A stretch of DNA of 64,000 nt, from the NCBI GenBank assembly GCA_964601935.1, contig CAZROP010000002.1, forward strand, positions 7,299 to 71,298. The letters run 5' to 3'. The notes beneath the pieces were generated by a model. That model saw only the letters and a program-made list of their open reading frames with translations. It was not told where the DNA came from and ran no database searches. Positions 3,471-55,225 of this stretch are shown here, in pieces. The position numbers were made by a program, and so were the translations under genes. The stretch comes from an uncultured Candidatus Saccharibacteria bacterium. Its GTDB lineage: Bacteria; Patescibacteriota; Minisyncoccia; Phycocordibacterales; UBA1006. Every line of letters starts with the position of its first letter. Within the stretch, counting starts at the first letter, position 1.

Positions 3471-4091
3471 ATGTCAGAAAAGTTTCTTGTCCTCTTTTTG
3501 GGTAATTCAGGTAATGAATATACAGAAACTCGGCATAATGCGGGATGGATTATTGCAGATGAGTTGGTTCGACCTGACCAGTGGCAAGAGAATAAATACG
3601 CAGAAGCGTTGTCTGTTATTGCACCAGGCGACTTTACAGTAGAGAAAGTTCAAAGTGAAGATCCGACTGTACCAGGACTGTATACAGAGCGCGCAGATGT
3701 ATTCTATGCCAAGCCGTTGACATTCATGAATCTCTCGGGCAAAACCGCGCGCTATTACTGCGAAAAGGAGCGCATCAAGCGTGATCAGGTTATCGTAGTG
3801 TACGATGATATAGATATTCCGGTTGGGCAGTTCAAACTCTCGCAGGGAAGAGGTGATGGCAATCATAATGGTATTAAATCACTCATCAAAGAGCTCGGAA
3901 CGAAGTCATTCATACGTATTCGTATCGGTGTTGGATCACCCGACCGTGGTCCTGGTGTTGGATCGTTTGTGCTTGCGCGTTTCCGTCCGGAGGAAGTTAC
4001 GACTATTCGTGCATTGGCCTCAAGGGTGTCACAATGTCTGCATGAGGTTGTGTTGAGGGGAGCCATAAAGGCAATGAATAGTTGGAATTAG
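3471..4091 (+). CDS. pth: peptidyl-tRNA hydrolase
   Basis: 206 aa starting at the ATG 2 nt after the gltX stop; FLVLFLGNSGNEYTETRHNAGW matches the Pth N-terminal signature; the ORF-track 5' extension overlaps gltX and is rejected. Confidence 0.85.
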   Translation: MSEKFLVLFLGNSGNEYTETRHNAGWIIADELVRPDQWQENKYAEALSVIAPGDFTVEKVQSEDPTVPGLYTERADVFYAKPLTFMNLSGKTARYYCEKERIKRDQVIVVYDDIDIPVGQFKLSQGRGDGNHNGIKSLIKELGTKSFIRIRIGVGSPDRGPGVGSFVLARFRPEEVTTIRALASRVSQCLHEVVLRGAIKAMNSWN

Positions 4092-9267: not shown

Positions 9268-10173
9268 TTAGTTATTCGCAAAAGCTTGCTCCAGTGTCGC
9301 TATATCAAACTTCTTCATCCCCATAAAGGCTTGGGTGACGCGCGCAATCTGTTCTGGTGTTCCGGCCTGCATCATTTCATTCATGCGTCGTGGAGTGATC
9401 TGCCAGGATACTCCATAGGCGTCCTTTAGCCAGCCGCATTGTTCTGATTCGGGAACTGCAGATAACTTTTCCCAGTAGTGGTCGATTTCTTCCTGAGTAT
9501 CACAATTAACTATGAACGAAACCGCTTCGTTAAACGCAAAATCATGCTGATTTCCGCTATCCATAGCAACAAACCATTGATTCTCTAGTTTGAAGTCAGT
9601 AAACATGGTCGTTCCCTCTGTGTTTGGCTCCATTCCTGCAGGGTAGTGAACAAGGGCGCCGCGTGTGCTGTCTTTGAATACAGAGAGATAAAAATCAGAT
9701 GCTTCTTCTGCTTTGCCGTGTACGATACCAGTAAACAGAAGAGATGGGATAATTAGCGGGCGCTCTTCGCCTTCGGGTTTTGTATAGATCAATTGCCAGG
9801 AGATACCGTATTTGTCCTCTATCCATCCATAGCGTTCGCTGAATGGGTAAGTATCTAGGGGCATGAGTACCTTTCCGCCCGGTAGTAGCTTGTTCCATAT
9901 ATCGTTGATGTCGGTGGGGGCATTTGCGTTCTGTGATGGGTCAAAATTCACCATAAAGGATATCGATGGATTAATTTTGAACAGAGGTCCTGCGCTAATT
10001 GACATAAATGAATACCCCATGACGTCAAAGGCCATAATATCGCAATCACCAGAGGGTGTATCATGAATGACCGATGAGTGGGTGATCTTCGAATTAGGGA
10101 ATACAGTGGTATAGAATTCCGCTGCTTCTTTTGCTTCCTTGTCGAACCATAAATGCGGTATTATCTTTTGCAT
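9268..10173 (-). CDS. tandem-domain VOC/PhnB-like protein (3-demethylubiquinone-9 3-methyltransferase-like fold)
   Basis: 301 aa; two repeats each beginning I(I)P(H/S)L(W/L)F...AEEA..FY..VF, as in the PhnB/YjdN family. Confidence 0.6.
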
Positions 10174-10274
10174 ACACGAGGAGCAGGTGTTGTTTCTTGA
10201 ATAGTATTCATAGGTATGAGGATGTTCGGGTTAGTGATTTGTGTGCTAAAGCTTTCGTGTCTTTTGCAGCACCA

Positions 10275-12653
10275 TTATATATTACTTCTCGTCGCGAATT
10301 GTATGATTGTTGTAGCTTGTGTGCTGGGCTGTAGGGTGATTGTTTTTGTATCAGAAGAGACAACGTAGGACGCATTTGCAGAATCTACAGTTTTGGCTCC
10401 AGCAGGGATGAGAATTGTCATTGGACTGGTGATGCCTTTTGCAGTTATCTCGTATTTTTTCAGTGTTGGGTTGTACGTGGTAGAAATAACGGCACGTTCT
10501 TTTACTGTTATGGTGAAGTCGGTACCATAACGTAGTTTCAGAGCATCTCGTGAAAAGATATTAGTAGAGTTTTTTGTAGTGTTTTCACTCACAATCAAAA
10601 TTCGCCCGTCTGTTTCTAGATCTTGGGTCAATTTTGAAGCAGTCTTTGCTATGGTCATGAGCGTTTGGTTTGCCTTGCCCATTACAAAATGTTTACCATC
10701 AACGTCAGTCACTGTTGCGCCGGATGCTTCTGCTGTGGTGAGAGGCGCCTTTACGATATCAACCGCTGATGATTTATTATGAGGATACAGGATTGATATC
10801 CAGTTGTCTCCTCGTGAGACGGTATTCATTGATAGAACTGTGTGCGTCCCGGTTTTATCATAATCAGTTTCGTGCACAGCCTGGAATGTTTCGCGGTTTT
10901 GACGACTGTTACGTGAAGCAGAAAAGGCTGTGAGACGTGTTACTCCATCAGCACGATCCCATATATCCATGTCGCGTACCTGTGAATAGGTGCCGACACC
11001 ATGCAGCAGAAACTCGGCTCGTCGTCGGGTATTCAGATCCGCGTCATCATTGATAACGAGGAATTTGTCGTTAGTCATTACAAATTCGCGTGTCACCTGG
11101 GCGTTACCGTAATGAGATCGAATGAGAGCCTGTTTGAATACGCCACGGTCAAAATTGTTGAGAAACTCCACGCCCTCGCTCACTTTGCCGTCACCATCCT
11201 TGGGTGCGCCTTGATCCAGATAGATGAGGCTGTGGTTCTTTGCTTTGGATACTTCATCTCTGCGATCCCAACGAATGTATCCAGGGTCATAGGTTACATA
11301 ATCCCCATTGAAAAACATAAAGAAGCTGGTCTCGTCGCCCTGGTTGTGTCCGCCCGCTGTTTCCAGTGCACGACCGCCTTTTGCCTGAATATGTAGATAG
11401 AGCGCTTTTGGATCCCAGCTGCTACGATAGACAATGTCTCCTGATTCTTTGTTCAGCCACCAGGTTGGTCCTGTTGGCGCAGTAGGTGTCTGTAGTGATC
11501 CCAGATACTCGGCACGGAGATCGGTGATTTCGTTGATGCCTGATACTACTGGTTTGTATGTTTGGGTAAAGAATGTACCAGGAACATCAGCAATGGCTAC
11601 CTCTGGCCACGTCATATTGGTAAAGCTGTCCTCGATCGCAGGAATTCTGCCGTCGGGCAGTCTAATCATATTGGCCCACTCGTACAGTCGGGTATAGTCT
11701 CTGTTGTATGCTGGATGCTGATAGGTGTGCGTCTTGCTACCTAGTTTCCAGGTATGTGTACCGTCAGGTACATAATTCTTGAGTGCCTCAAAAAATGGCA
11801 GCATGTTTTTCATTGCGTATTTCAGGTAATAGGGACCCTCTGTATATCCATAAATACCTGGTGGTGTTGATACGCCTGACTTTCGCTTGTGATGCCCGAA
11901 CAAAACCTCATGAATACTCCACATGCCGGCATTGACCCATTTCGAGGCATCTTTGTGTTCGTTCAATACGATGCCGCCCAATCCAATAGCAGAGGCCGTC
12001 ATGAGTGAGTGATTGTTAATAATAGTTGTTGCTATAGACACACCGACAATCCCTTCAGTAAATTTATCATGCAAGTCTCCTGTAAATTGCTCTAGTTTTA
12101 TTCGTGCGTTTTTCAGTCTTTCAGGAGGAACATTAGCGCCGAGAAGTAGATCATAAGCGGTCAAATAATTGATGAGCTCTTTTGATCGCCACTGCCATTC
12201 GGTGTAGTTTATTTTGGAGTCAACCGTATTATTATGCACTTCCAGTAGCATGATCGCTTTTTCGGTGAGTTCGGTAATTTTTGGTTGTAACAAAGGCTTC
12301 AGTTCTTTGTCGAGACCTACTAATAGAATAAATGCTATTGCTTTTGCCTGATCTGAGCGGGCCTGGCGACTGCTGGAAGAAGGCGGTATAGGGCTATTTG
12401 CTAAATCAAATAAATCCTTGTATATACCTAGACGCTCCACACTCGCGAGCGACTTCAGGCCGTTTATCATGCCCGGTAATTCTGATTTTTTAATTATAGT
12501 ACGGGGTCGATCTGAATTTGCGCCAGACGGGTTCCATTGTGCCAGGGTGGGCAAGGGGGCAGAAATACTGCCTACCGATAGAAGTACTACGATAATAGCT
12601 AGGCTAGATCGCATATGATTACTCATTTTTGTAAACGTTGTGGGTAAGGACAT
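10275..12653 (-). CDS. secreted large protein, tentatively heparinase II/III-like polysaccharide lyase family
   Basis: 792 aa; N-terminal signal peptide (SLAIIVVLLSVGSISAPLPTLA); segment AGGHNQGDETSFFMFFNGDYVTYDPGY resembles the gHgHaDalsF...vDpG motif of the Hepar_II_III C-terminal domain. Confidence 0.4.
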   Translation of the reverse strand: MSLPTTFTKMSNHMRSSLAIIVVLLSVGSISAPLPTLAQWNPSGANSDRPRTIIKKSELPGMINGLKSLASVERLGIYKDLFDLANSPIPPSSSSRQARSDQAKAIAFILLVGLDKELKPLLQPKITELTEKAIMLLEVHNNTVDSKINYTEWQWRSKELINYLTAYDLLLGANVPPERLKNARIKLEQFTGDLHDKFTEGIVGVSIATTIINNHSLMTASAIGLGGIVLNEHKDASKWVNAGMWSIHEVLFGHHKRKSGVSTPPGIYGYTEGPYYLKYAMKNMLPFFEALKNYVPDGTHTWKLGSKTHTYQHPAYNRDYTRLYEWANMIRLPDGRIPAIEDSFTNMTWPEVAIADVPGTFFTQTYKPVVSGINEITDLRAEYLGSLQTPTAPTGPTWWLNKESGDIVYRSSWDPKALYLHIQAKGGRALETAGGHNQGDETSFFMFFNGDYVTYDPGYIRWDRRDEVSKAKNHSLIYLDQGAPKDGDGKVSEGVEFLNNFDRGVFKQALIRSHYGNAQVTREFVMTNDKFLVINDDADLNTRRRAEFLLHGVGTYSQVRDMDIWDRADGVTRLTAFSASRNSRQNRETFQAVHETDYDKTGTHTVLSMNTVSRGDNWISILYPHNKSSAVDIVKAPLTTAEASGATVTDVDGKHFVMGKANQTLMTIAKTASKLTQDLETDGRILIVSENTTKNSTNIFSRDALKLRYGTDFTITVKERAVISTTYNPTLKKYEITAKGITSPMTILIPAGAKTVDSANASYVVSSDTKTITLQPSTQATTIIQFATRSNI

Positions 12654-12773
12654 AGTGATGTATTGAGAGATCGGATAACACGCATATTGTACCGCGCCAC
12701 CCTAGCAAACGTATGGGGATATGTGGTGGTCAGCCATGGGTATGGTCATTAGAAGAATAACGATAAAGCAAGA

Positions 12774-13121
12774 TCACTTCCTCAATGCGTTGATGGTCTG
12801 TGTCTGGTTTTCAATAATTTGTAGCATTTTTCTATTCTCATTAATTAACGATTGGTTGACCTCTAATATTTGTTCACGCTCTTCAATTTTTTGAGAATAC
12901 TCTTTGTAAGTCACAGAATTTATATGAAAAGAATCAATGACTAGTGTTGCCACCATAATTATCATCGTAATGAATGCCACAATGAAAATTCCTATAATTA
13001 GGTTGGTCTGCGTATCGTATCTTGTCAGGATTGCCTGTATTTCAGACTTGGGGTCAGAAAATTCAATTGAGGGATTATTGTTTTCTTTAAGATCTTTAGA
13101 GAATGTAATACTCTTTTTCAT
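12774..13121 (-). CDS. hypothetical small membrane/coiled-coil protein
   Basis: 115 aa; one TM (IIGIFIVAFITMIIMVATLVI) then a heptad-like C-terminus. Confidence 0.3.
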   Translation of the reverse strand: MKKSITFSKDLKENNNPSIEFSDPKSEIQAILTRYDTQTNLIIGIFIVAFITMIIMVATLVIDSFHINSVTYKEYSQKIEEREQILEVNQSLINENRKMLQIIENQTQTINALRK

Positions 13122-13125
13122 AAGT

Positions 13126-13341
13126 TTAGTAGACGCCTTTAATTACAATTACCTCTCCATCGACGTCCACTTCAAAATCTCGATTTCTGAATTGTGTGAA
13201 ATCTACCCCAGATATATTTACACCTTGTCCAAATCGAACCCCAGGCCCAAAAGTAACACCGCCTACGCGAGTGCGCTGCCTTGGCTCCACTGAGCCATCC
13301 GGATAAGTATTAAAGAGTGATTCAAAGTTAAGCCTTGCCAT
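13126..13341 (-). CDS. hypothetical Gly-rich small protein
   Basis: 71 aa from an internal ATG (the track start is GTG); 4-nt spacing to the next gene. Confidence 0.25.
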   Translation of the reverse strand: MARLNFESLFNTYPDGSVEPRQRTRVGGVTFGPGVRFGQGVNISGVDFTQFRNRDFEVDVDGEVIVIKGVY

Positions 13342-13391
13342 ATAGCAATCATTATACACCTTTTATATATTTAAAATCCGGTTTGTAGTCA

Positions 13392-13401
13392 CCCCCCCCC
13401 C
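13392..13401. repeat. homopolymeric C10 tract (G10 on the coding strand of the flanking – strand genes)
   Basis: read directly: acccccccccc immediately 3' of the stop of the 13401..13757 gene and 40 nt upstream of the next start. Confidence 0.85.
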
Positions 13402-13757
13402 TAGTCCGCAGTTTTGAAAGTCCATTCATTAATATTTAGTAAGACCAAAGCATCATCAGGCTCTCCCCAGATTGAAGAGCTTTTATCCCAATAAAAGAAG
13501 TGTGAGTTGTTGCTCTGGTTTTTGCTAACCTTGTATGAGCCTGCTTTAGTATAAATAACAACCAGGTCGTCTTTTTTAACTTCCTGATCTTGAAACCAGA
13601 AGGTTTCAGACACCCGACTGGAGACACTTGTCTCAGAAGATTTATTAGACTTAAAAATAGCATATTGCCCTACGTCAGTATCTTCCAAAACCCTCAGAAC
13701 AACGCGTTCCTTTTGTATATTGCCGATATCTTCAATTCCCATAATTTTTAATCGCAT
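13401..13757 (-). CDS. hypothetical protein
   Basis: 118 aa, no motif recognised. Confidence 0.3.
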   Translation of the reverse strand: MRLKIMGIEDIGNIQKERVVLRVLEDTDVGQYAIFKSNKSSETSVSSRVSETFWFQDQEVKKDDLVVIYTKAGSYKVSKNQSNNSHFFYWDKSSSIWGEPDDALVLLNINEWTFKTAD

Positions 13758-13760
13758 ACA

Positions 13761-14210
13761 TTATTTTTTTCTATGTAACCAGTCAGGATCTATGAAAGCT
13801 AAGGCAAAACTTATTACACATAATACAAAAATTCCTAACCGATATTGCTCCAAATCTGAGACAAAAATTAAGCCCCCCAATAATCCGCCTATAGCGTATA
13901 GAAGAGATCTGACTGTTACAGAATCTTTTAACCCTATTAAGCGTTCAGTTAATACGGCAAGTTCTTCACTTTTTTTATAATAATCTTCTTTAAATATTTT
14001 TAATTCAGTCAGATCGCGTCCTAGACGGGAAATTTCGCCTAACAGGATCTTGGTCACTAACCTTAAGTTTTTCGCATTTTTTATTTCCTCTTCCGTTATA
14101 ATGCTGTTCAGACCTGACCATGGAGTTTTGGCGTTTGCAAGGGACTTGATATCTTCGGCTTCAAATGAGACTGTCGGCTCCTCGTCAGGTTTTCCTATTT
14201 TTCTAGCCAT
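13761..14210 (-). CDS. hypothetical protein with C-terminal TM hairpin
   Basis: 149 aa; coiled-coil-like middle, C-terminal GGLLGGLIFVS...IFVLCVISFALAFI. Confidence 0.35.
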   Translation of the reverse strand: MARKIGKPDEEPTVSFEAEDIKSLANAKTPWSGLNSIITEEEIKNAKNLRLVTKILLGEISRLGRDLTELKIFKEDYYKKSEELAVLTERLIGLKDSVTVRSLLYAIGGLLGGLIFVSDLEQYRLGIFVLCVISFALAFIDPDWLHRKK

Positions 14211-14751
14211 ATTATATTAAGCTGCAGTTTAAATGTAAATACATAAAATAAGTAAGAGTTGTTTTGCCAATGTTGCCACAAGAGGACTTAGCTCGAAGTT
14301 TTGAAGTTTTTATCAATAATATAGGCTTATTTCAGACGTGGACCGAAAATATGCGCAATTTTATGACTAAAGATAGGGAAGAGTCAGTTTCGACTATTAA
14401 ATTATAGGGCACCCGTGATATAATTGCTATATATGATTACAAATAGGAAAGATAATCTCACAGATGTTATACAAGCTTCGCCGACAAAACCGAGCTCAGT
14501 CCCATCTACTGATTCGCCCAGTAAACCTGGTCCTCAGCAGGTGGTAGATAATACCGGACAGGTTGTAACATTGGGAAAATAGGGGTGTTCTAATCGTTTT
14601 TAGTATATAGGAAAAAACACTCGAAGTTTTACGGGTTTTCTATTGTGTATTTTAAACAAGCGAATACAGGCAAGGCAAATTCTTTTCCCAAAAAGAAGAA
14701 TTTGACGATGTCTGTAGATTCGCTTGTTACAAAATTTATAAACTCCTACGA

Positions 14752-15561
14752 TTATGGGGTGTCTGGCCTACTAGGATGAGTCTCTTCGGTAGCTGGTTCA
14801 GCGCGAGTGGCAAACAGTCCTGACTCAAATTCAAGCTTACGAGCTGGTATTATCACTTTTGTTAAATAGGTAATCAAGTTGTCTAGAATGTCTTTACATT
14901 CTCCAGTGAGGTTTTGGTACTTTTCAGATACTTGTAAATCCATAAAATTCCATTCGAGTCCTACTAGACCCTCAGCGGTTACTAAAAGTATTAATTCTCT
15001 AATGTAATTCTCAGCTTCCCCCTGATTTTTCACAAGGAGGTGTCGAGTAATCTTTAGGTATAAAAGTATAATTTTGTCTGAGGATTCGTGGAAAATATCC
15101 TTACTTAGAGAGTCAGTTTTTTCTGACATGTACATATATTGGTCAAACTTTTCATAATCTCCGGTTAGTAGTAATGCCTCGCATAGGTTCGTAAAAATAC
15201 GTGGATCCGGTCTTATGTAGAATGCTTCCACCCACTTTTTACCAGCGTGTACGTAGTGGTGTCTATGAAGTGCTTGTGCGGCTGCTTCATCCAGGCTAAT
15301 AAATCGAGTTTCAACTAACTGTCGTAATGCATAATATGCCGCAAATATCCCGAGCAGTAAGGTGGCAGCTTGGATCATTAGATTAAGTATAGCTACTTTC
15401 TCTGATAGGTCAGAGGGCTTAGTCGCTAAAAATATGATATATGTGATTACAGAGAGAATAACTAAAATCCCTATCAGTACGGTCTGAAATCTTTTATTAA
15501 ATGAGGGGTAGGGGAGTATCTTTTCCCAAAAATTCTTCGCCACTTTCTTCATACTACTCAT
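14752..15561 (-). CDS. hypothetical membrane protein
   Basis: about 269 aa from the ATG (the track start is TTG); two N-terminal TM helices. Confidence 0.4.
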   Translation of the reverse strand: MSSMKKVAKNFWEKILPYPSFNKRFQTVLIGILVILSVITYIIFLATKPSDLSEKVAILNLMIQAATLLLGIFAAYYALRQLVETRFISLDEAAAQALHRHHYVHAGKKWVEAFYIRPDPRIFTNLCEALLLTGDYEKFDQYMYMSEKTDSLSKDIFHESSDKIILLYLKITRHLLVKNQGEAENYIRELILLVTAEGLVGLEWNFMDLQVSEKYQNLTGECKDILDNLITYLTKVIIPARKLEFESGLFATRAEPATEETHPSRPDTP

Positions 15562-15775
15562 CAAGATTAAAAATTACTTTCCCTTTACCAAAGGCAGCAA
15601 TTCGTTCTAGTGAAGAAGGCAGCATTCTGTGGCAATTGCGTATTATTAAGGTCGCACCTGATTGCGCTGCAAGTGCAGCAAAACGCTCCAGCGTGGCTGG
15701 AAGATACTTTGGAGCATCGACAGATACTCCGCCCCCAAATGCAATTATTCTTTCTATCGATTGAGGTAAAAACAT
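15554..15775 (-). CDS. small internally repeated protein (hypothetical)
   Basis: 73 aa; two copies of S(I/L)ERI(I/A)AFG(G/K)G; overlaps the downstream gene by 8 nt; competing +strand ORFs make it uncertain. Confidence 0.25.
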   Translation of the reverse strand: MFLPQSIERIIAFGGGVSVDAPKYLPATLERFAALAAQSGATLIIRNCHRMLPSSLERIAAFGKGKVIFNLDE

Positions 15776-15824
15776 ACAAAGGCCAAGGTGAATTAGCTAC
15801 GTAATCTTACCATAACGCCCGTGT

Positions 15825-16607
15825 TTAACAATTCAATGCCTTCCTCCATCCAGCCTGGATCGCATCCTGTTCAGAGCAAAACCACTTCTCACCCTCTGAT
15901 TCGTCGATGATGGTAGCATTATAGGACCTGCATCCTTGGACATGGTAGATCTTCTCTTTCTTTGCATTGGTACTGATATTTCCTTTGATGGTACAAGAGG
16001 AGGTTGGAGCAGGTACGGTAGCTTGAGCTACTGGAGTAGCGACAATTGCTGTAGGTACAACCGTTTTCAGTGTCCCAGAAGCCGTATTTTGACACGTAGA
16101 GCCCCATAATCCTTTCTTTTGGTCTGATGCCTGTTTCTGTGCACTCTTGAATTCTACTTGATATTTGTAGGGTAGATCATAGGTATACTCGTAAGCATAT
16201 CCATCCTTGATCATAGAGAGGTTTACATTGGTCCCATTTGATAGGAGTACATATCGTAAAAGACGGCCGTACTTGTCTTTATCCCCCTGAGTATCATCTT
16301 TTTCTAGGAATACCTTTTTACCAGTCAGCAAAGACTTTGCCTTATTAGATGCTTCTTTACCAAAACACTCTACTGGTTTACGAGGATCTACCGTTTCTGG
16401 TGTGTTTACACCAATGAGACGTATACGTTCTTTTTTGCCACTGATCATTACATCGATGGTATCTCCATCCACAACCCTTACTACTTTGTAGAGTTTGGAT
16501 GATTGAGCGGTCTGGGTGGTAATAGGCACTGTACTGGTTGTTTGAGCCAGTAGCAGGCTCGGGTTAAATGTGAGGGCGAGGGTTAGGGTGATGAGAAGGG
16601 TTTTCAT
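15825..16607 (-). CDS. secreted thermonuclease (staphylococcal nuclease/SNase-like) with C-terminal Cys-containing domain
   Basis: 260 aa; signal peptide; VVRVVDGDTIDV...RIRLIGVNTPE...YGRLLRYV matches the SNase motifs; C-terminal IYHVQGCRSY...WFCSEQDAIQAGWR. Confidence 0.75.
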   Translation of the reverse strand: MKTLLITLTLALTFNPSLLLAQTTSTVPITTQTAQSSKLYKVVRVVDGDTIDVMISGKKERIRLIGVNTPETVDPRKPVECFGKEASNKAKSLLTGKKVFLEKDDTQGDKDKYGRLLRYVLLSNGTNVNLSMIKDGYAYEYTYDLPYKYQVEFKSAQKQASDQKKGLWGSTCQNTASGTLKTVVPTAIVATPVAQATVPAPTSSCTIKGNISTNAKKEKIYHVQGCRSYNATIIDESEGEKWFCSEQDAIQAGWRKALNC

Positions 16608-16612
16608 ATTGA

Positions 16613-17224
16613 TTATTTAATATTAACTTTAGCATCACAAGAGTTGCTTCCTGTAGGTTCAGCCTTTAAGAAGTCGCACAACTTGTAAACTTCAAAGTTC
16701 TGCCAGTTTATCTTTTCGAATAAGTTTCGGTCCATTGAATAGTATAGCGCTAAATTATTTGAAACATTGCCATACTTGTCAGTAGTGTCAGCGTAATAGT
16801 GGATATCTATATCCTGAACCTTAGGATATATGGAGTATATATCCTGGAAGAGTTTGCCAGAGACTTGTCCTGTCTCTCGATAGAGCGATTTAGCAGTAAG
16901 AAAGTCTCCAACATGTAATTTCACAATAACTTGCTTTGAATCTACTCCAGAATCAACCATCTCTGCATGTACATAGGTAAAGGTTTTTGAAGTGCGAGAT
17001 ATGGTTGTCGCCGTTCCTCGTTCAAAAGATTGTGCATATATTGATACTATAGGGGTTGCATCTACTTTTTTCTGAACCTCCTTAGCTTCTTCGCCTGGAT
17101 CAAAGAAATTATTAATACGACCTATTACAATAATGAATAGAATAATTCCTCCTATGAGTGTGAGGATTGGGTGTTTTTCAAACCAGGTGGGTTGTTCTGA
17201 ATCTGGGGTTGGGTGTGGGTTCAT
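16613..17224 (-). CDS. membrane-anchored hypothetical protein (first gene of the nuclease operon)
   Basis: 203 aa; single N-terminal TM; 5-nt gap to the nuclease gene. Confidence 0.4.
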   Translation of the reverse strand: MNPHPTPDSEQPTWFEKHPILTLIGGIILFIIVIGRINNFFDPGEEAKEVQKKVDATPIVSIYAQSFERGTATTISRTSKTFTYVHAEMVDSGVDSKQVIVKLHVGDFLTAKSLYRETGQVSGKLFQDIYSIYPKVQDIDIHYYADTTDKYGNVSNNLALYYSMDRNLFEKINWQNFEVYKLCDFLKAEPTGSNSCDAKVNIK

Positions 17225-17513
17225 AAATGGTGCTTGATAGGGCTTTTAATAAGTTCATGAAAGGCTTCATACAAAAAGCCCGCCACGAGTAGAGACCGAA
17301 GTCTCTCATACCTGTTTCCAGGTATGGCCTATCAAGCAAACCCCATGACGGGTTCTTTATGCTTGATAGGGCTTACAAAAATTGACCATGCCTAGCGGGT
17401 TTCGCTAGGGTTAGGTCCCTATTAACTTGTCCAAGGTAGTATATACCTTTTTGGTCCAAAATCTATGGGTGTGCGTTAAAAAAGATAGGTGTATAATGAA
17501 TAAGCGATAGCTT
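17225..17513. promoter_or_regulatory. structured divergent intergenic region with a repeated TGCTTGATAGG motif and three hairpins
   Basis: motif at about 17232 and 17361 (direct) and about 17326 (inverted); hairpins gagaccgaagtctc, catacctg-tttc-caggtatg, cctagcg-ggttt-cgctagg; TGTATAAT -10 at about 17490-17497. Confidence 0.35.
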
Positions 17514-17909
17514 ATGAAGTGCCAATTTGTCAAAGCAAATAAGGACCAATGCAGATGTCATGCGGTAAGCGGTGATAGCTTTTGCTTTAATCATTCTGAA
17601 AAGACAAAAAACCAGAAGCTGAATGCGGTTCGTAAGGGTGGATATGCCATGAAGTTTAAACCCAGCATTATGACCAGTCCGATACCTTTGCGTACAGGAG
17701 CGGATATTCTGGGCCTGCTTGAAGATATTGTAGGCGGTCTCAAAGTTGGCCCCATTACACCACAAAAAGCTAACTCTCTAGTGAGTATTGCAGGACTTGC
17801 GTTGAAAGTGCAAGAAACAAGTCAGGGGGTGAAAGAGCCTATGACGGTGTTTGATTTGTTGAAGGAGAAGTTGCATAAGGATAAAGTAAAAGAGCAGGCT
17901 CTAATTTAA
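17514..17909 (+). CDS. hypothetical protein with N-terminal Cys/His cluster (possible Zn-ribbon regulator)
   Basis: 131 aa; CQFVKANKDQCRCH...CFNH; first gene of a tightly spaced 4-gene operon. Confidence 0.35.
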   Translation: MKCQFVKANKDQCRCHAVSGDSFCFNHSEKTKNQKLNAVRKGGYAMKFKPSIMTSPIPLRTGADILGLLEDIVGGLKVGPITPQKANSLVSIAGLALKVQETSQGVKEPMTVFDLLKEKLHKDKVKEQALI

Positions 17910-17927
17910 TATACTAATAGATAAATT

Positions 17928-18836
17928 ATGAATAAATATAAAATACAACAAATAATCTCAACAATGGCAGAGTGCGCTGTTCTGAGCGGCAGCAGCGACT
18001 CCTCTTTTGTGGAGGGTATGTATAAGTTTTCACATGTTGGTTATTCACCATCCAGTGGTTGGCGGGATCGTGCTTGGGTTGCAGAGGCTGTGGTCGAGGG
18101 TTTAGACATTAATGACGCGTATCGTAAATTCTCTCAAGGTCTTACTAAAATTACCTCAAGGATTTCACTCGTTGGTCAAGCTTGTATTGATTATCATAGA
18201 GAATCTTTCTTGATCCATAAGATGGGGAGTTCTGTTGCACTTTTTCGTTATATCCATCGAGGAGAAGGTGTTGGTTTAATGTTTATGGATAAGGAAGTTA
18301 AAGCCTTAAGGATATTGCTGTTAGATAAATTTTTGCCCGATAACTTTTTTCTATACTGGAACGAAGCTACGAATATAAGTAATTACTCTGCAAAGCTTCT
18401 ATTAATGTTTTCAGCGCTTGAGACTATTATCACAAAAGATCAGACTTCTAAGAATTGGCAGTTATTAAACGATATTCTGGGCAGTAACGTGGTAAAAGAC
18501 TGTTTTGGGGAAAGGGGTAACTCAAGCATAGGATTAAGAAATCGCTTAGTACACGGAGAATACTTCTCAGTGGGAGACTTTGATAAAGATTATGTAACTC
18601 TTATACATGACGGTGTGATTAAATATATAAATAACAATATTTTGCAGGCTAAACTAATTGAGGAAGACGTCGTCTCTCCACAGCGAGGTTTTGAAGAGGT
18701 CGATCAATTGAGGTCTTATATAAAGTTAGCTGATAGCACAACTGAATTTTCAATTGAAGCTCTTGTCAGAGACGCCTCAAAAGACTTTCAAAATCCTGAA
18801 ACCTTTGAGTATGTGGCGCCAGGTCTCCATTATTAG
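17928..18836 (+). CDS. HEPN-motif protein A (putative RNase, toxin-like)
   Basis: 302 aa; C-terminal IGLRNRLVHGEY fits the HEPN Rx4-6H motif; paralogous to the next gene. Confidence 0.5.
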   Translation: MNKYKIQQIISTMAECAVLSGSSDSSFVEGMYKFSHVGYSPSSGWRDRAWVAEAVVEGLDINDAYRKFSQGLTKITSRISLVGQACIDYHRESFLIHKMGSSVALFRYIHRGEGVGLMFMDKEVKALRILLLDKFLPDNFFLYWNEATNISNYSAKLLLMFSALETIITKDQTSKNWQLLNDILGSNVVKDCFGERGNSSIGLRNRLVHGEYFSVGDFDKDYVTLIHDGVIKYINNNILQAKLIEEDVVSPQRGFEEVDQLRSYIKLADSTTEFSIEALVRDASKDFQNPETFEYVAPGLHY

Positions 18837-18844
18837 AATATATT

Positions 18845-19891
18845 ATGAAAAAAATATTTATTGGATTTGTAGGTCAAAGTGACGAGCTCACTGAAAAAAT
18901 CTTAGAAATACAAGAGGGTTATGAGATATGGAATTTGAAACTGTTTAGTCTCGAAGAATTCACCAAAATCGTTAAAGACAGAATACCGCCCGTGAATAAT
19001 AACGTTATAAATAATTATATTGTTGAGGAGTATAACGAGAACTATGGTATCACAGAAGAGTATTTTTCTCGCTGTACGTGGGGCTTATTTATACCAGATA
19101 GCTTGGGTGATGTTTCTGGTGATAGTTTTTCAGAGACTATGTTTTTATTAAATCTTTTTTCGCCATCTTTCCTGTATCCAATATTCTACGTAACTGACTT
19201 CGGTGTAACGGTAAAAAGGTATGATAATAGAAAGATACTCTCCTTTGGAAACTCACAAGGACAGGCAAAGTTATTTACTTCTTCGAACTTCGTAGACTTT
19301 TTTAAAACCCTGCTTCCGTCATCGGCATATAGCGGTACTTGGCAGCTTGATCGTGTTCAGGTTTGGAAGAAAGAAGACTGGAGATTGTTCGTTGCAGGCA
19401 TGCTATTCTCTGACTTACGAGTCTATGATAATAGCAAAAGTGCGCTGACGTGGCAAAGAGAATCAGTGGAAATGAGTATGGTACTAGAATCACTATTTAT
19501 AGCTGATGATACCAATAGTGAAGAAATAGGGTACAGGTTAAGGAAAAGAATTGCTGTACTGCTTTCAGTGTATTTTCCTAATATTGAAAATGATATTAAA
19601 GAACTTTATAAGGCTAGAAGCGAGTTTGTTCATGGATCATTTTATCTTAAGCTTGCAAAGAGTAGTGACCAGTTACCTACGCCCAACTTTAACTTGTTAC
19701 ACCAACAAACGGAGTTTGTGCGTTGGTCGTTAATTGGGTGCCTTCATTTGTTTCAAGTTATCAATAACGGTTCTAAATACCCCCAGAAGTCAGTAATGAG
19801 TGTGTTAGAAGCTGCTATCGTTGACGTTAAACTTCGTGAAAGTATATTAAATGATGTAAGTGAAGTGTTTTCTCTCTTGCCAACTATTTAA
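18845..19891 (+). CDS. HEPN-motif protein B (paralog of A)
   Basis: 348 aa; C-terminal ELYKARSEFVHGSF (Rx4HG) in the same relative position as in A; 8-nt spacing. Confidence 0.5.
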   Translation: MKKIFIGFVGQSDELTEKILEIQEGYEIWNLKLFSLEEFTKIVKDRIPPVNNNVINNYIVEEYNENYGITEEYFSRCTWGLFIPDSLGDVSGDSFSETMFLLNLFSPSFLYPIFYVTDFGVTVKRYDNRKILSFGNSQGQAKLFTSSNFVDFFKTLLPSSAYSGTWQLDRVQVWKKEDWRLFVAGMLFSDLRVYDNSKSALTWQRESVEMSMVLESLFIADDTNSEEIGYRLRKRIAVLLSVYFPNIENDIKELYKARSEFVHGSFYLKLAKSSDQLPTPNFNLLHQQTEFVRWSLIGCLHLFQVINNGSKYPQKSVMSVLEAAIVDVKLRESILNDVSEVFSLLPTI

Positions 19892-19915
19892 ATTGGCTCA
19901 TAATTGCTTTATCCT

Positions 19916-21079
19916 ATGAAAAAACCGCAAAAAGAAGCAAGTAAGCCTCCAATAAAAAGGAAGACAAGATCATCCAAATCTGCTTTGAGTTATATAAGTG
20001 ATTATGCAGGTAGGTGGCTGGATGATCAGATAGGATTCTTTAAGGAGTGTAAGATTTCTCAAGAAGAGGTAGACAGTGCGAAATTGCATTGGCATGAGCT
20101 TGCCAAAATATACGATGACCATAAGTCTAGGGAAGTTTTGCTATCGACAACAGCAAATACGATCTCTCAAATCATCCAGGGAATGTCAAAGGTCCACAGT
20201 GTTCGTTTAAGAATAAAAGATCCCGCTAGTCTGATTGGAAAAATTGTAAGAAAGCGCAAGGCAGATCCTAATAGAGATATAAATTATAATAACTACAAAG
20301 ACGAAATTACAGATTTAATCGGAATAAGGATACTACACTTGTTAAAATCGGATTGGGAAAGTATCCATAGAGGTCTTTTTGATCATTTCTCTGCTAAAGG
20401 GAAGCCAGTAGCTTATATTCGTGAGGGCGATTCTAATGAGTGGATTACTATGTATAAAAACGCAGGTTGTAGGGTTGAAGATCACGAACGTAGATATAGG
20501 TCAGTTCACTATGAGGTGAAAGTAGGTATCACGAAAGAGCCTATAATTGCTGAAATTCAGGTCAGGACAATCCATGAAGAAAGTTGGAGTGAGCTTGATC
20601 ACGCCATCAATTATCCCGTACAGGCGTCACTAATCATCCAGAATCTTTTGAGCACCCTAAACCAACTTGCTGGGATATCAGATGAGCTAAGCGCATACAC
20701 AATGTACGTTTTTAATGCGTTCGAAGAACAAAAGGCGGAAATAGAGATGCTCCAAAATAGTTACTCAGCAAAACTTTCTGAAACGGAGGAGTTAATCAAC
20801 AGGTTAGAGGTTAAAGAAGCAGAAAAGACTAAAATAAAAGAAAAGCTTAAAGATTTAGAAACAAAAGGTAACTCAGCTATGGGCTTTTCAGAAAGTAATA
20901 CCGTTTTTTCGACCTCAGGTTTGCAACTTAGGACAAACTTTGCTGCCCCTATCTTTGGCAGCAATAACCACGACCCGACATCAGCTGTAAGACGGTGCGC
21001 AAGGTGTAAAGGTTTTTTGTTTGGTGGTTCCATCGGGAGTAATTTATGCGCTGTTTGTTCCGTTGCTTATAGAGTATAG
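19916..21079 (+). CDS. RelA/SpoT-homolog (RSH) synthetase-fold nucleotidyltransferase with C-terminal Cys4 element (toxSAS-like)
   Basis: 387 aa from the ATG (the track start is TTG); motifs SLIGKIVRKRK, DLIGIRILHL, RYRSVHYEV, EIQVRTIHEESWSELDH match the RelA_SpoT synthetase core; then a coiled-coil and CARCKG...CAVCS. Confidence 0.7.
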   Translation: MKKPQKEASKPPIKRKTRSSKSALSYISDYAGRWLDDQIGFFKECKISQEEVDSAKLHWHELAKIYDDHKSREVLLSTTANTISQIIQGMSKVHSVRLRIKDPASLIGKIVRKRKADPNRDINYNNYKDEITDLIGIRILHLLKSDWESIHRGLFDHFSAKGKPVAYIREGDSNEWITMYKNAGCRVEDHERRYRSVHYEVKVGITKEPIIAEIQVRTIHEESWSELDHAINYPVQASLIIQNLLSTLNQLAGISDELSAYTMYVFNAFEEQKAEIEMLQNSYSAKLSETEELINRLEVKEAEKTKIKEKLKDLETKGNSAMGFSESNTVFSTSGLQLRTNFAAPIFGSNNHDPTSAVRRCARCKGFLFGGSIGSNLCAVCSVAYRV

Positions 21080-21135
21080 GTAAGTATGCTAATTAGACTT
21101 TCTACTTAACTCTTCTCTTGATACCGAAAAATCAT

Positions 21136-22761
21136 ATGGACATTAACATTTTAATGGATAGTTTGAACAGTGATAGGCAGAGTGTGGAAGACGCTAAGGA
21201 TATTAAGTATGTTATCTACGCCCGGAAGTCTACGGATGACATGGGTAAGCAGGCTCGGTCCTTGGCAGATCAGGTGTCAGAGTGTCAGCAATACGCACTC
21301 ACCCACAATCTGCGTTGTGACCCGACCCCTATTATAGAGTCTGAGTCAGCAAAAGAGCCCGATATTCGACCCAAGTTTAGACAAATGATGGAAGACCTCA
21401 AAAGAGGAAAGTATGGAGGAGTTATTGCCTGGCACCCTGATAGATTATCTCGAAACATGAAGGACGCAGGGGAGATTATAGATCTCGTGGACAAGAGTGT
21501 TATTCGTGACTTGAAGTTCGTAAGTTTTGTATTTGATAATACTACTAGCGGAAAGATGCTTTTAGGTATGACCTTTGTACTATCTAAACAGTACTCAGAT
21601 GCTTTAAGTGACAACGTTAACCGTGGTAATAGAAAGAGTGTTGAAGAGGGAAAGTATATCAATAAAGCGAAACACGGTTACTACAAGGACCCTAACCAGT
21701 ATCTAAGACCTGATACCCATAATAATAATTTTATTCTGATAAAAACTGCTTTTAGAATGCGCCTGGATGGAGCTGGGTTGGATGAAATTGTTAAGTACCT
21801 AAACGAAAATAACTACTCAAAAGCAAATACTGGTCAGTATAGAACAATATTTAAAATGACGAAGCAGCGTGTATCAAGCTTTCTCTCTGATCCGATTTAT
21901 ACAGGTGTATACCGTTATGGCGGAATAGAAGCAGTTAACCTTGTTGAAAAGTATCATTTTGAGCCAATGATAACTGTTGAGGAGTTTGCAAAAATAAATA
22001 AACGAATATTCCCAAGCCTTGGTAGGTCCGCTCGTAAGAAGGATGGGGTACGAGCAGATTTTATGGTTAAAAGAGTTCGCTGTAGTTTTTGTGGCGAAGC
22101 AATGTCTACAGGTATTAGTGGAAGCAGAGCAGATTCCGGCGAAAAGACAGAGTACTTCTATTACCGATGTGAGACCGAAAAGTGCGTCAGGCATAACAAG
22201 TCGACTCGCGCAAAGGTTATTGTTGATTATGCAGTTGAGTTCCTGCAAACATTACCGTTCTCATCAGAGGCAAGTTACGATCACTACTTGAAGGAAATGG
22301 ACAGGTTGAGTACACAAAAAGTAACCAAATCTAAAGAAAGGGTAAAAAGTTTGCAGACAAAGAGAGTATTTTTAGTAGAAAGAGAAAAAAAGGTAAAAGA
22401 AATGCTACTTAACGAAAAAGATGGTCGTATTAAAGATGAGTTTCGAGGGGATTTTGAACTGATAAAAGATCAGGTCTCTAAAATAGAACAAGAAATAACT
22501 GATCTAAAAGAGATAATTACTGGCGGTAAAACTGCTCCGGCTACCTATAGCGAGTTCCTCGAAGTTTTAAAGAAAATGCCTTTATTTATTAGGGAAATTA
22601 AGAGTTTAAGCGAGTTAGATTTTTTTATGAAAAAAATCTTCTCGAACCTCACTGTTAATGGTAAAAAAGTCATAAAAACAACGCTTGCTGCGCCCTTTGA
22701 TAAGTTGTATAAACTAAGTAATCCTGCTTTGTTGCCCGATAAGGACTCGAACCTCAATTAA
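21136..22761 (+). CDS. large serine recombinase (integrase)
   Basis: 541 aa; resolvase catalytic motif YVIYARKSTDD, recombinase domain, Zn ribbon CSFCGE...YYRCETEKC, coiled-coil C-terminus; last 10 codons overlap tRNA-Gln. Confidence 0.85.
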   Translation: MDINILMDSLNSDRQSVEDAKDIKYVIYARKSTDDMGKQARSLADQVSECQQYALTHNLRCDPTPIIESESAKEPDIRPKFRQMMEDLKRGKYGGVIAWHPDRLSRNMKDAGEIIDLVDKSVIRDLKFVSFVFDNTTSGKMLLGMTFVLSKQYSDALSDNVNRGNRKSVEEGKYINKAKHGYYKDPNQYLRPDTHNNNFILIKTAFRMRLDGAGLDEIVKYLNENNYSKANTGQYRTIFKMTKQRVSSFLSDPIYTGVYRYGGIEAVNLVEKYHFEPMITVEEFAKINKRIFPSLGRSARKKDGVRADFMVKRVRCSFCGEAMSTGISGSRADSGEKTEYFYYRCETEKCVRHNKSTRAKVIVDYAVEFLQTLPFSSEASYDHYLKEMDRLSTQKVTKSKERVKSLQTKRVFLVEREKKVKEMLLNEKDGRIKDEFRGDFELIKDQVSKIEQEITDLKEIITGGKTAPATYSEFLEVLKKMPLFIREIKSLSELDFFMKKIFSNLTVNGKKVIKTTLAAPFDKLYKLSNPALLPDKDSNLN

Positions 22762-22802
22762 CGGTACCAGAAACCGCTGTCCTACCATTAGACGATCGGG
22801 CA
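22732..22802 (-). tRNA. tRNA-Gln (anticodon CTG)
   Basis: hand-folded cloverleaf: acceptor TGCCCGA/TCGGGCA, T-arm TGAGG-TTCGAGT-CCTTA, anticodon loop TTCTGGT; no encoded CCA. Confidence 0.8.
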
Positions 22803-54820: not shown

Positions 54821-55225
54821 ATGAAGAAAATTCATTGCACTATTATTACTCCGGAACGCGTGGTCTATGATGCCGAAGTGGATCAGGTCAGTGTGACAAC
54901 AGCGCAAGGACAGATTACATTATTGCCCGATCACGAATCGCTGATGTCGGTAATTATACCGGGAGACATCACGGTGTGGCACAATGGTACCGCTATCGGG
55001 TTTGTAGTGGGTCAGGGGACATTGGAAATACACAATAACGTATTGCGTATTTTGGCGAACACCACTGAATCCCATGATGATATTGATATAGTGCGTGCAG
55101 AGGCAGCCCTGGAACGTGCACGCCAGGCAATGGAGGAAAAGGCAGGTGTATACGACGAGGAGTATGCTCGGCTAGAGGCGATAATTGCTCGTAATCTCGC
55201 GCGAATCAAGATAAAACGGAAGTAG
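54821..55225 (+). CDS. atpC: ATP synthase subunit epsilon
   Basis: 134 aa; beta-sandwich N-terminus plus helical C-terminus. Confidence 0.8.
   Translation: MKKIHCTIITPERVVYDAEVDQVSVTTAQGQITLLPDHESLMSVIIPGDITVWHNGTAIGFVVGQGTLEIHNNVLRILANTTESHDDIDIVRAEAALERARQAMEEKAGVYDEEYARLEAIIARNLARIKIKRK

Follow-up and report, generated by a model that had tools for sequence, protein, structure and literature searches.

In a stretch of 64,000 nucleotides from an uncultured Candidatus Saccharibacteria bacterium (contig CAZROP010000002.1, positions 7,299 to 71,298; the whole stretch is called the window below), the 3′ ends of an integrase gene and of a tRNA-Gln gene occupy the same nucleotides, at the right-hand end of what is here interpreted as a genomic island. 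The integrase reading frame lies on the + strand and runs from 21118 (TTG) or 21136 (ATG) to 22761, which corresponds to 547 or 541 amino acids (aa). Convergent to it, on the - strand, is tRNA-Gln(CTG), delimited as 22731-22802 by ARAGORN and as 22732-22802 by the Rfam tRNA model (57.1 bits), with an acceptor stem of 7 bp that are all paired. The stop codon of the integrase sits in the variable loop of the tRNA, giving an overlap of 30-31 nt. The final ten codons of the frame (TTG CCC GAT AAG GAC TCG AAC CTC AAT TAA at 22732-22761, nine plus the stop) are the exact reverse complement of tRNA-Gln from the discriminator to the variable loop. Read in antisense, the frame thus passes through the acceptor 3′ strand (22733-39), the T-stem (22740-44), the T-loop (22745-51) and the T-stem again (22752-56), and the 3′ end of the gene reads …CTGCTTTGTTGCCCGATAAGGAC.

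By its domain architecture, the predicted protein is a large serine recombinase (LSR), since it matches the Resolvase and Recombinase domains, the PHROG integrase family phrog_95 (2.2e-62) and the solved integrases of SPbeta (SprA/YokA, 9dxh, E 1.4e-6), the nearest, and then TP901-1. The Resolvase domain (PF00239, 1.3e-22) covers residues 32-180 and holds the catalytic motif Y-A-R-K-S-T, in which R36 and S38 are invariant across 26 aligned family members. The Recombinase domain (PF07508) follows the catalytic domain at 1.2e-12, with 48.4 bits against a cutoff of 21.1. The zinc ribbon (Zn_ribbon_recom, PF13408) stays under its cutoff of 25.3 with 19.2 bits; C322, C325, C351 and C356 are invariant in the family alignment, and most homologues have a precomputed PF13408 match. 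There are 1591 detectable homologues, the best ∼55% identical, and those with a name come nearly all from Patescibacteria, the candidate phyla radiation (CPR). Their C-termini resemble translated antisense T-arms (…GGRGGTRTLNP…, …GRGERT, …GNRTPNLS).

The overlap with a tRNA is widespread in this family. From at least 582 matching loci, 80 LSR loci of species-representative genomes were retrieved (L001 to L080) and all were run through ARAGORN; the 76 in which the stop codon lies inside the retrieved sequence form the base of the count. At 59 of these 76 loci the stop codon falls inside a convergent tRNA gene, and 5 further loci share the overlap once the frame is traced past the end of the tblastn match, a recurrence that excludes a chance overlap. 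The tRNAs concerned belong to at least 12 isotypes: Pro (22), Leu (9), Lys (8), Met (4) and Gly (3), together with Asp, Glu, His, Gln, Val, Ile and Ser. The conserved motif nearest the C-terminus, P[FYW], lies 38 nt from the tRNA 3′ end at 31 of 52 loci (range 35-50), and the window likewise has 38 nt. In 41 of 59 cases an LSR and its nearest LSR relative sit at tRNAs of one isotype, where permutations gave 9.7 such cases on average and 21 at most, so that the choice of target follows the enzyme, with switches. An example is the pair L059 and L060, whose LSRs are 98.5% identical and yet sit at tRNA-Leu(tag) and tRNA-Leu(gag), respectively. From these comparisons, the tRNA overlap is taken to be a design of the integrase family and not a coincidence.

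Antisense information in the LSR genes also includes a transcription terminator. Across L001-L080, the 60 nt downstream of the tRNA, read on the tRNA strand and lying within the LSR genes, fold with a mean of -14.2 kcal/mol against -8.8 kcal/mol in control windows of the same genes (Wilcoxon p 3e-9), as a hairpin followed by a U-tract. The palindrome is preserved in the DNA while the peptide changes, as in LNPPYD.MVDL versus LKEPWQGFL. In the window, the 60 nt past tRNA-Gln fold more weakly (-8.2 against -6.3 kcal/mol for the control). The hairpin and T-run found there (Table 1) are likely the terminator of tRNA-Gln, supplied by the element. Given such an antisense hairpin within the LSR gene, the element would replace both the displaced tRNA tail and its terminator.

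Copies of the tRNA tail have been found at the far ends of related elements. In L038, a 22-nt exact copy of the tRNA-Pro 3′ end up to the T-loop, GTGGTCGGGGTGACAGGACTTG, occurs again 4.3 kb upstream; a terminator hairpin and host genes (L28 and others) come directly before it, and GTCACC…GACCCCG, the inverted image of the acceptor, comes after it. In L026, the tail copy lies 7.8 kb upstream (16 nt exact, 18 nt with 1 mismatch) with a terminator hairpin before it, and copies of 12-14 nt are present at the far ends of L032, L060 and L017. A further case is L085, from a relative of the organism of the window (PBP2 72% identical), in which tRNA-Gln(CTG) is present without an LSR. There, 158 nt past the tRNA end (3544-3720 region), the sequence TTcCCCGACATGGAC copies the tRNA-Gln tail with 15/16 nt and is followed by CCTTCGGGCG, inverted to the acceptor. 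This copy looks like the scar of an almost wholly deleted element, similar to a left attachment (att) site, attL. Past the scar, L085 has 3 kb of variable genes, including a Mrr_cat nuclease.

Accretion and transfer are documented at other loci. Tandem LSR arrays at one tRNA occur in L067 (10001-21479), L071 (1443-13457) and L020 (1849-1903 and 11577-11631), where the newer LSR abuts the tRNA and the older LSR, or just its last 46 nt, is displaced outward. A module of 2.0-2.2 kb with high identity is common to L033/L041/L048 (∼9440-11640), to L036 (9822-11738) and L039, and to L059 (4553-6687) and L060. It consists of 0.2-0.55 kb of upstream DNA, the LSR and the tRNA, and the cargo of those elements is unrelated. 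Between L036 and L039 the integrase module is 92.6% similar against 76-82% for the host flanks, which indicates transfer.

Together, the far-end copies, the arrays and the module transfer argue for integration at the tRNA 3′ end with a tail supplied by the element, and the locus as a whole is likely best explained as a serine-integrase island inserted at the 3′ end of tRNA-Gln, the tail of which it supplied. A preliminary description of the locus had seen the recombinase overlap the 3′ half of tRNA-Gln and had proposed integration at the tRNA 3′ end with restoration of the gene. The overlap is now confirmed to the base by ARAGORN, Rfam and the coordinates of the open reading frames (ORFs), and the proposal gains support from the family-wide geometry and from the far-end tails of L038, L026 and L085. 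Mechanistically, the att site of the element (attP) would overlap the 3′ end of the integrase gene throughout the clade, and the half-site of the element would carry, in antisense, a replacement terminator hairpin and a replacement tRNA 3′ tail. Recombination within the 3′-terminal part of the tRNA would swap the ends, leaving an intact tRNA made of the host body and the element tail, while the native tail would be moved to the far end of the element. The integrase frame would then continue into the tRNA body to the first chance stop, located here in the variable loop. Recombination of attP with the host site (attB) through a 2-bp crossover, yielding the hybrid sites attL and attR, is supported indirectly by the tail copies at the far ends of the same three loci.

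The extent of these copies bears on where the crossover lies. With positions numbered from the encoded CCA end, the blocks of identity run from -1 to +21 in L038, -3 to +18 in L026, +8 to +21 in L060 and +10 to +21 in L017. These four and the block of L085 all stop at or just past GGAC, at the border of T-stem and T-loop. The reconstructed attP of L038 (…CGTTCGTGGTCGGGGTGACAGGACTTGGTCACCTCTGGCGACCCCGC…) is symmetric about AC, and that of L085 less clearly so. By analogy, a crossover at the T-loop/T-stem border, which in the window would be the AC at 22745-22746, is moderately probable. With a crossover at this place, 22732-22746 would be element DNA and the last four codons of the LSR with its stop would be host DNA. 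We infer this position, the derivation of 22732-22746 from the element and the arrival of the island as one unit.

Several observations weigh against integration as described. The window nowhere contains an attL, a tail copy, a P′-like sequence or a remnant of an LSR, and the second att junction with a displaced target, present in L038, L026 and the scar of L085, is absent from it. A second copy of the tRNA-Gln 3′ segment was not found in the 64 kb with a 34-mer, a 15-mer with up to 3 mismatches or a 24-mer scan compared with shuffles, which bears out by computation what the preliminary description had found by eye. In the window, blastn-short on both strands and general repeat finding gave chance-level matches to the tail only; a P′-like inverted acceptor (CCTT..CGGGC) was not found in the island, nor were LSR pseudogene remnants found in the window. 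Of 60 related loci, only 3-5 have a copy of the tail within 10 kb. Close relatives yielded no empty site, and the neighbourhoods of the nearest ones (PBP2 64-74% aa identity) are rearranged. The palindrome-centre test backs AC in only two of four reconstructed sites and fails for L026 and L060. In addition, the repeat of L020 stops at +9, and L059 and L060, whose modules are nearly identical, part after +8, which suggests a crossover in the acceptor stem instead, near 22736-22737 of the window; the position may differ among sub-clades. Finally, the block of cargo, LSR and tRNA-Pro(ggg) of L038 (7305-11684) is inverted relative to L010, L016 and L061, related Saccharimonadales genomes where it lies between the same host genes (L28/202-aa at one end and 237-aa at the other), and simple integration does not account for this inversion.

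Three partial matches to the tRNA tail in the window were rejected as att sites. The match at 54923 is due to chance and lies within an ATP-synthase-epsilon-like ORF. The 11-mer TTGCCCGATAA at 18333-18343, which starts exactly at the tRNA end, lies midway in a 302-aa gene with full-length homologues. The sequence GTTGCCACAAGAGGAC at 14272 (12/16 matches, in a 540-nt non-coding stretch) does not stand out from the null distribution and is unable to pair with the 5′ strand of the tRNA. Searches for an empty site did not yield one. Exact-protein look-ups of PBP2, the neighbouring 90-aa gene and a 792-aa gene on the left flank returned the same arrangement only, a metagenome scan with PBP2 found no close relative, and L085, L086, L087 and L090 proved rearranged or too short for comparison. 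A search of IMG/VR for an excised or phage form returned only 2 LSR relatives, both with a full tRNA attached.

The preliminary description had regarded the lack of a direct repeat as a ground for refutation, which is not valid for a serine integrase. Sites of the phiC31 and Bxb1 type need only a common core of 2 bp. Such a core suffices, and at most related loci there is no copy within 10 kb, so that integration is not refuted by the lack of a long repeat. This lack is also accounted for by a decayed or domesticated island, which would have integrated as proposed and then lost its far att site by deletion or rearrangement, the island becoming fixed and the integrase a relic or a receiver of further elements. 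This version is a real possibility, with somewhat less than an even chance. It fits the failure of every search of the window for attL, a left junction that abuts the 792-aa gene, which itself looks acquired, and the rearranged synteny around tRNA-Gln in relatives. It also fits the two source samples (SRR13208889 and SRR13208906), which carry the identical arrangement and in which no variant was found. Since the clean cases L038, L026 and L085 retain the native tail, its absence here suggests loss by deletion or rearrangement. Rearrangement is plausible because tRNA-Gln in L085 differs in its orientation relative to PBP2 and in its neighbours, and because the element and tRNA-Pro block is inverted in L038. 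On the other hand, the LSR frame is full length and has, by construction, all residues that are invariant among the 26 aligned members, the cargo operon and its associated RNA (see below) are intact, and the scarcity of tail copies at related loci makes their absence weakly informative. As none of the methods applied located the other att site, this copy may have become immobile and unable to excise.

The alternative that the complete tRNA is carried by the mobile unit, with the true att sites in other places, such as the tRNA 5′ end and the end of the cargo, is considered unlikely. It would explain why the high-identity DNA of L033/L041/L048, L036/L039 and L059/L060 ends between a few and 45 nt from the tRNA 5′ end, with its other edge 0.2-0.55 kb upstream of the LSR, why cargo, LSR and tRNA are inverted as one block between identical host flanks, and why two complete tRNA-Pro genes stand 6.6 kb from each other in L044. 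A shared tRNA sequence is no discriminating evidence, however, as tRNAs are conserved anyway, and small CPR genomes usually have single-copy tRNAs. The far ends of L038 and L026 are partial tails of 16-22 nt beside a native-looking terminator and host genes, and in L087 a tRNA-Gln 100% identical to that of the window over 77 nt stands without an adjoining LSR tail, the DNA differing from the base adjoining the tRNA 3′ end (only 26 nt are available there). A coincidental read-through, in which an integrase merely located beside a tRNA has a frame that happens to stay open into it, is scarcely credible. The antisense-tRNA tails are indeed not conserved as protein and vary in frame and length (the overlaps include 13, 22, 31 and 58 nt), but a meaningless protein tail is also what integration predicts. 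Moreover, for tRNAs of at least 12 isotypes the adjacency is constant to the nucleotide, and tail copies exist at far ends. Read-through is thus refuted for the adjacency and survives only as the statement that the last residues are functionless.

For the island interpreted as inserted at the tRNA-Gln 3′ end, foreign DNA spans ∼12,700 to ∼22,746 as judged from composition and homology. The guanine-cytosine (GC) content is 0.387 over 12654-22731 against 0.447 on the left and 0.442 on the right (standard deviation of 1-kb windows 0.022), and it falls from 0.45 to 0.33 at 12774, where an ORF ends. The relative L090, which has a homologue of the 792-aa protein (80% aa identity), is homologous to the window over 10274-12699 only, the -10 box included, and past the break carries an FtsX/MacB-like permease gene where the window has the island. 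The homology break and the GC drop therefore place the left limit of the window-specific DNA at ∼12,700. On the right, homology with relatives is back at ∼22,810, with the 90-aa gene, PBP2 (Transpeptidase), GreA and LysS. The AT-richer composition, the nuclease and toxin-like cargo (now backed by SNase and RelA_SpoT matches plus a weak HEPN-like one, Table 1) and the housekeeping genes on the right had all been noted in the preliminary description and stand. Of its two candidates for the left boundary, 12.7 kb is retained on account of the homology stop at 12699 and the GC drop; 17.3 kb is discarded, that spot being a LOOT RNA belonging to these elements. It is not a boundary because LOOT, the SNase, homologues of the 131-aa protein and the membrane-anchored ORF that follows LOOT recur beside related integrases.

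Two observations concern the left flank and the low-GC part. The flanking 792-aa heparinase II/III-like protein (10275-12653, - strand) has, beyond the one 80% relative, homologues that are ∼32% identical; those with a name are all from Bacteroidota, mostly Hymenobacter, and from this the gene bordering the island looks horizontally acquired as well. A run of ten C at 13393-13402 is the end point of two independent Logan contigs (L081 and L092) and is probably a homopolymer assembly break, not a biological boundary.

Table 1. Features of the island and of related loci (window coordinates unless a locus is named)
Feature	Position	Strand	Basis or remark
Left limit of island DNA, no recognisable att site	12700-12773		L090 homology break, GC drop
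Low-GC cargo ORFs (115, 77?, 118, 149, 270, 73 aa)	12774-15775	-	ORF list; GC 0.33-0.43
Secreted SNase-like protein, C-terminal 'sunset' domain	15825-16607	-	Pfam SNase 6e-27; NCBIfam NucI-like 8e-36
203-aa protein, N-terminal transmembrane helix	16613-17224	-	Directly downstream of LOOT RNA
LOOT RNA (RF03000)	17291-17417	-	Rfam, 80.9 bits vs gathering 46.4, E 2.2e-14
131-aa Cys-rich protein, first gene of the integrase operon	17514-17909	+	No family match
302-aa protein, weakly HEPN_MAE_28990-like	17928-18836	+	Pfam 5e-4, under cutoff
348-aa protein	18845-19891	+	No Pfam or PHROG match
RelA/SpoT-type pyrophosphokinase domain protein, 391 aa	19904-21079	+	RelA_SpoT 1.8e-16; phrog_2211 1.8e-42
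Large serine recombinase (LSR, integrase)	21136-22761	+	Stop codon in tRNA variable loop
Hairpin and T-run, likely tRNA-Gln terminator	22680-22694	-	Terminator scan; within LSR coding region
tRNA-Gln 3′ tail (discriminator, acceptor 3′ strand, T-stem 3′ strand, first 2 nt of T-loop)	22732-22746	-	Probably element-supplied, by analogy
tRNA-Gln(CTG), intact	22732-22802	-	ARAGORN and Rfam
LOOT copies	L001 5405-5525; L002 8814-8932; L005 7899-8018; L012 13168-13283; L021 9475-9597; L023 9806-9925		
LOOT copies, further	L028 9640-9766; L038 9457-9577; L040 3540-3659; L053 1523-1641; L066 1440-1561; L067 5520-5644		
Conserved ∼45-nt stretch	L038 7495-7548; L010 7499-7548; L013 6365-6456; L017 3831-3879; L061 2343-2386; L014 50-93		

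The island consists of two divergent gene blocks, a + strand operon (131 aa, 302 aa, 348 aa, RelA/SpoT and LSR) and the remaining genes on the - strand. From 15.8 to 22.75 kb it is element-type DNA, as judged by recurrence beside related integrases: L021 and L040 each have an SNase homologue (61-62% aa identity) 1-2 kb upstream of their integrase, and a homologue of the 131-aa protein lies directly upstream of the integrase in L018. For the stretch from 12.7 to 15.8 kb, composition is the one sign of foreign origin, and an older element could have left it behind; its cargo ORFs, among which lies the non-coding stretch at 14211-14751, have no Pfam, PADLOC or PHROG match and no homologue in the 80 related loci. 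In the SNase-type nuclease the N-terminus is signal-like, and the protein scores 1e-50 against C3a212 (SNc+LTD), a candidate defence family of PADLOC. With 224 homologues, many aligning over their full length (P0242, for instance, with 43% over residues 1-296), the 302-aa protein is the product of a genuine gene. Its operon-mate, the RelA/SpoT-domain protein, has a coiled coil and a C-terminal Cys cluster; it could be a small alarmone synthetase of toxin or defence type, and it has no PADLOC match. PHROG searches with 10 island proteins returned integrase, nuclease and unknown-function families only, with no phage structural or packaging genes, and no relaxase, coupling protein or type IV secretion gene was matched by Pfam among the island ORFs. 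Pfam and PHROG scans of the island proteins also found no tyrosine recombinase gene, the sole recombinase being of the serine type. By its gene content, the DNA from ∼12.70 to 22.75 kb is a non-phage genomic island.

The LOOT RNA is located at the divergent junction of the two gene blocks and is itself divergent from the integrase operon. It covers model positions 1-121 of 121, and the LOOT helices covary. LOOT RNAs are present at 13 of 81 LSR loci, at 12 of them on the element side, and the 12 copies checked with Rfam all exceed the gathering threshold. The RNA lies inside the delimited 4.3-kb element of L038 and, in L001, L023, L028, L021 and L038, 76-424 nt upstream of the LSR. At 12 of 12 loci examined (L067 left out), LOOT is followed within 6-140 nt, on the same strand, by an ORF encoding a transmembrane segment at its N-terminus. 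This constant position suggests that in these islands LOOT is the 5′ leader of a gene for a membrane or secreted protein. A search of the literature on the LOOT motif found nothing relevant.

Two further features were noted in related elements. The left edge of the L033/L041 module has a 9-bp perfect inverted repeat, CTGCGAGGA…TCCTCGCAG. Elements targeting tRNA-Pro share a conserved stretch of ∼45 nt located 170-220 nt inside their left end (Table 1), in which a small ORF (…LLELFKYIIE.P…) may begin and which is a candidate for a small regulator or directionality factor.

For the family as a whole, it is judged slightly better than an even guess that a mostly patescibacterial LSR clade has evolved to use the 3′ ends of tRNA genes as attB. 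The 3′ end of its integrase genes would double as an antisense spare tail and terminator, isotypes would switch readily, and a subset of the elements would carry LOOT as the leader of a membrane-protein gene. Large DNA is inserted into genomes mainly by means of serine integrases, whose known natural sites are idiosyncratic and lie in protein-coding or intergenic DNA, while the targeting of tRNAs is regarded as a hallmark of tyrosine integrases. If the proposal is true, these enzymes represent an undescribed class of target choice by serine integrases, with natural sites that rank among the most conserved sequences in biology, and they would be candidate enzymes with predictable sites. An unrelated enzyme family would have converged on the 'safe harbour' strategy, including the repair of the gene it cuts. 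Much of the strain-variable DNA of the very small genomes of Patescibacteria would be explained, and LOOT, an orphan motif, would receive a first biological context in which it can be tested. For annotation, a tRNA overlapped by a convergent recombinase ORF would mark an island boundary, even without a direct repeat.

Comparison with known systems shows both shared and distinct features. To our knowledge, the LOOT motif has been described only from metagenomic sequence and without an assigned function; the RNA of the window matches the full model, and differs from that description in being placed in LSR islands of Patescibacteria, upstream of genes for membrane-anchored proteins. With the large serine integrases of phages and of integrative and conjugative elements (ICEs), such as those of phiC31, Bxb1, TP901-1, A118 and SPbeta (SprA), the window integrase shares the order of resolvase domain, recombinase domain, probable zinc ribbon and long C-terminal region, as well as the position of its gene at one end of the element beside an att site. 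As far as we know, characterised large serine integrases insert in protein-coding genes or intergenic DNA, whereas the clade described here would target the tRNA 3′ end, in many isotypes, and its identity to the solved members is very low. No literature on serine recombinases at tRNA genes in Patescibacteria or CPR was found, an absence that applies to one library and is not proof of novelty.

Tyrosine integrases classically insert at the 3′ end of a tRNA gene and restore it. Their islands and prophages (P4, pSAM2 and mv4 types) resemble the present elements in the target and its restoration by the element, in the adjoining integrase gene, in the displaced tail that forms a far direct repeat and in the tandem accretion at one tRNA. 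They differ in that the recombinase here is an unrelated serine enzyme, that the identity blocks are short or undetectable and that the integrase gene overlaps the convergent tRNA. Among serine integrases, an actinomycete element has been described that uses thiC as its target instead of a tRNA (PMC2440964), and the specificity of serine integrases in ICEs has been described as poorly known (PMC4701971). The closest described arrangement is that of the streptococcal rumA ICEs, which have a single serine integrase and direct repeats of 2-21 bp in rumA and within the integrase gene, and the integration of which swaps the 3′ parts of rumA and of the integrase gene (Ambroset et al. 2016, PMC4701971). 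The logic is that proposed here for an integrase frame ending in host DNA. The rumA elements are conjugative and target a protein-coding gene, whereas the island of the window has no recognisable conjugation genes and a convergent tRNA as its target, and its integrase gene would additionally encode, in antisense, a terminator and a tRNA tail.

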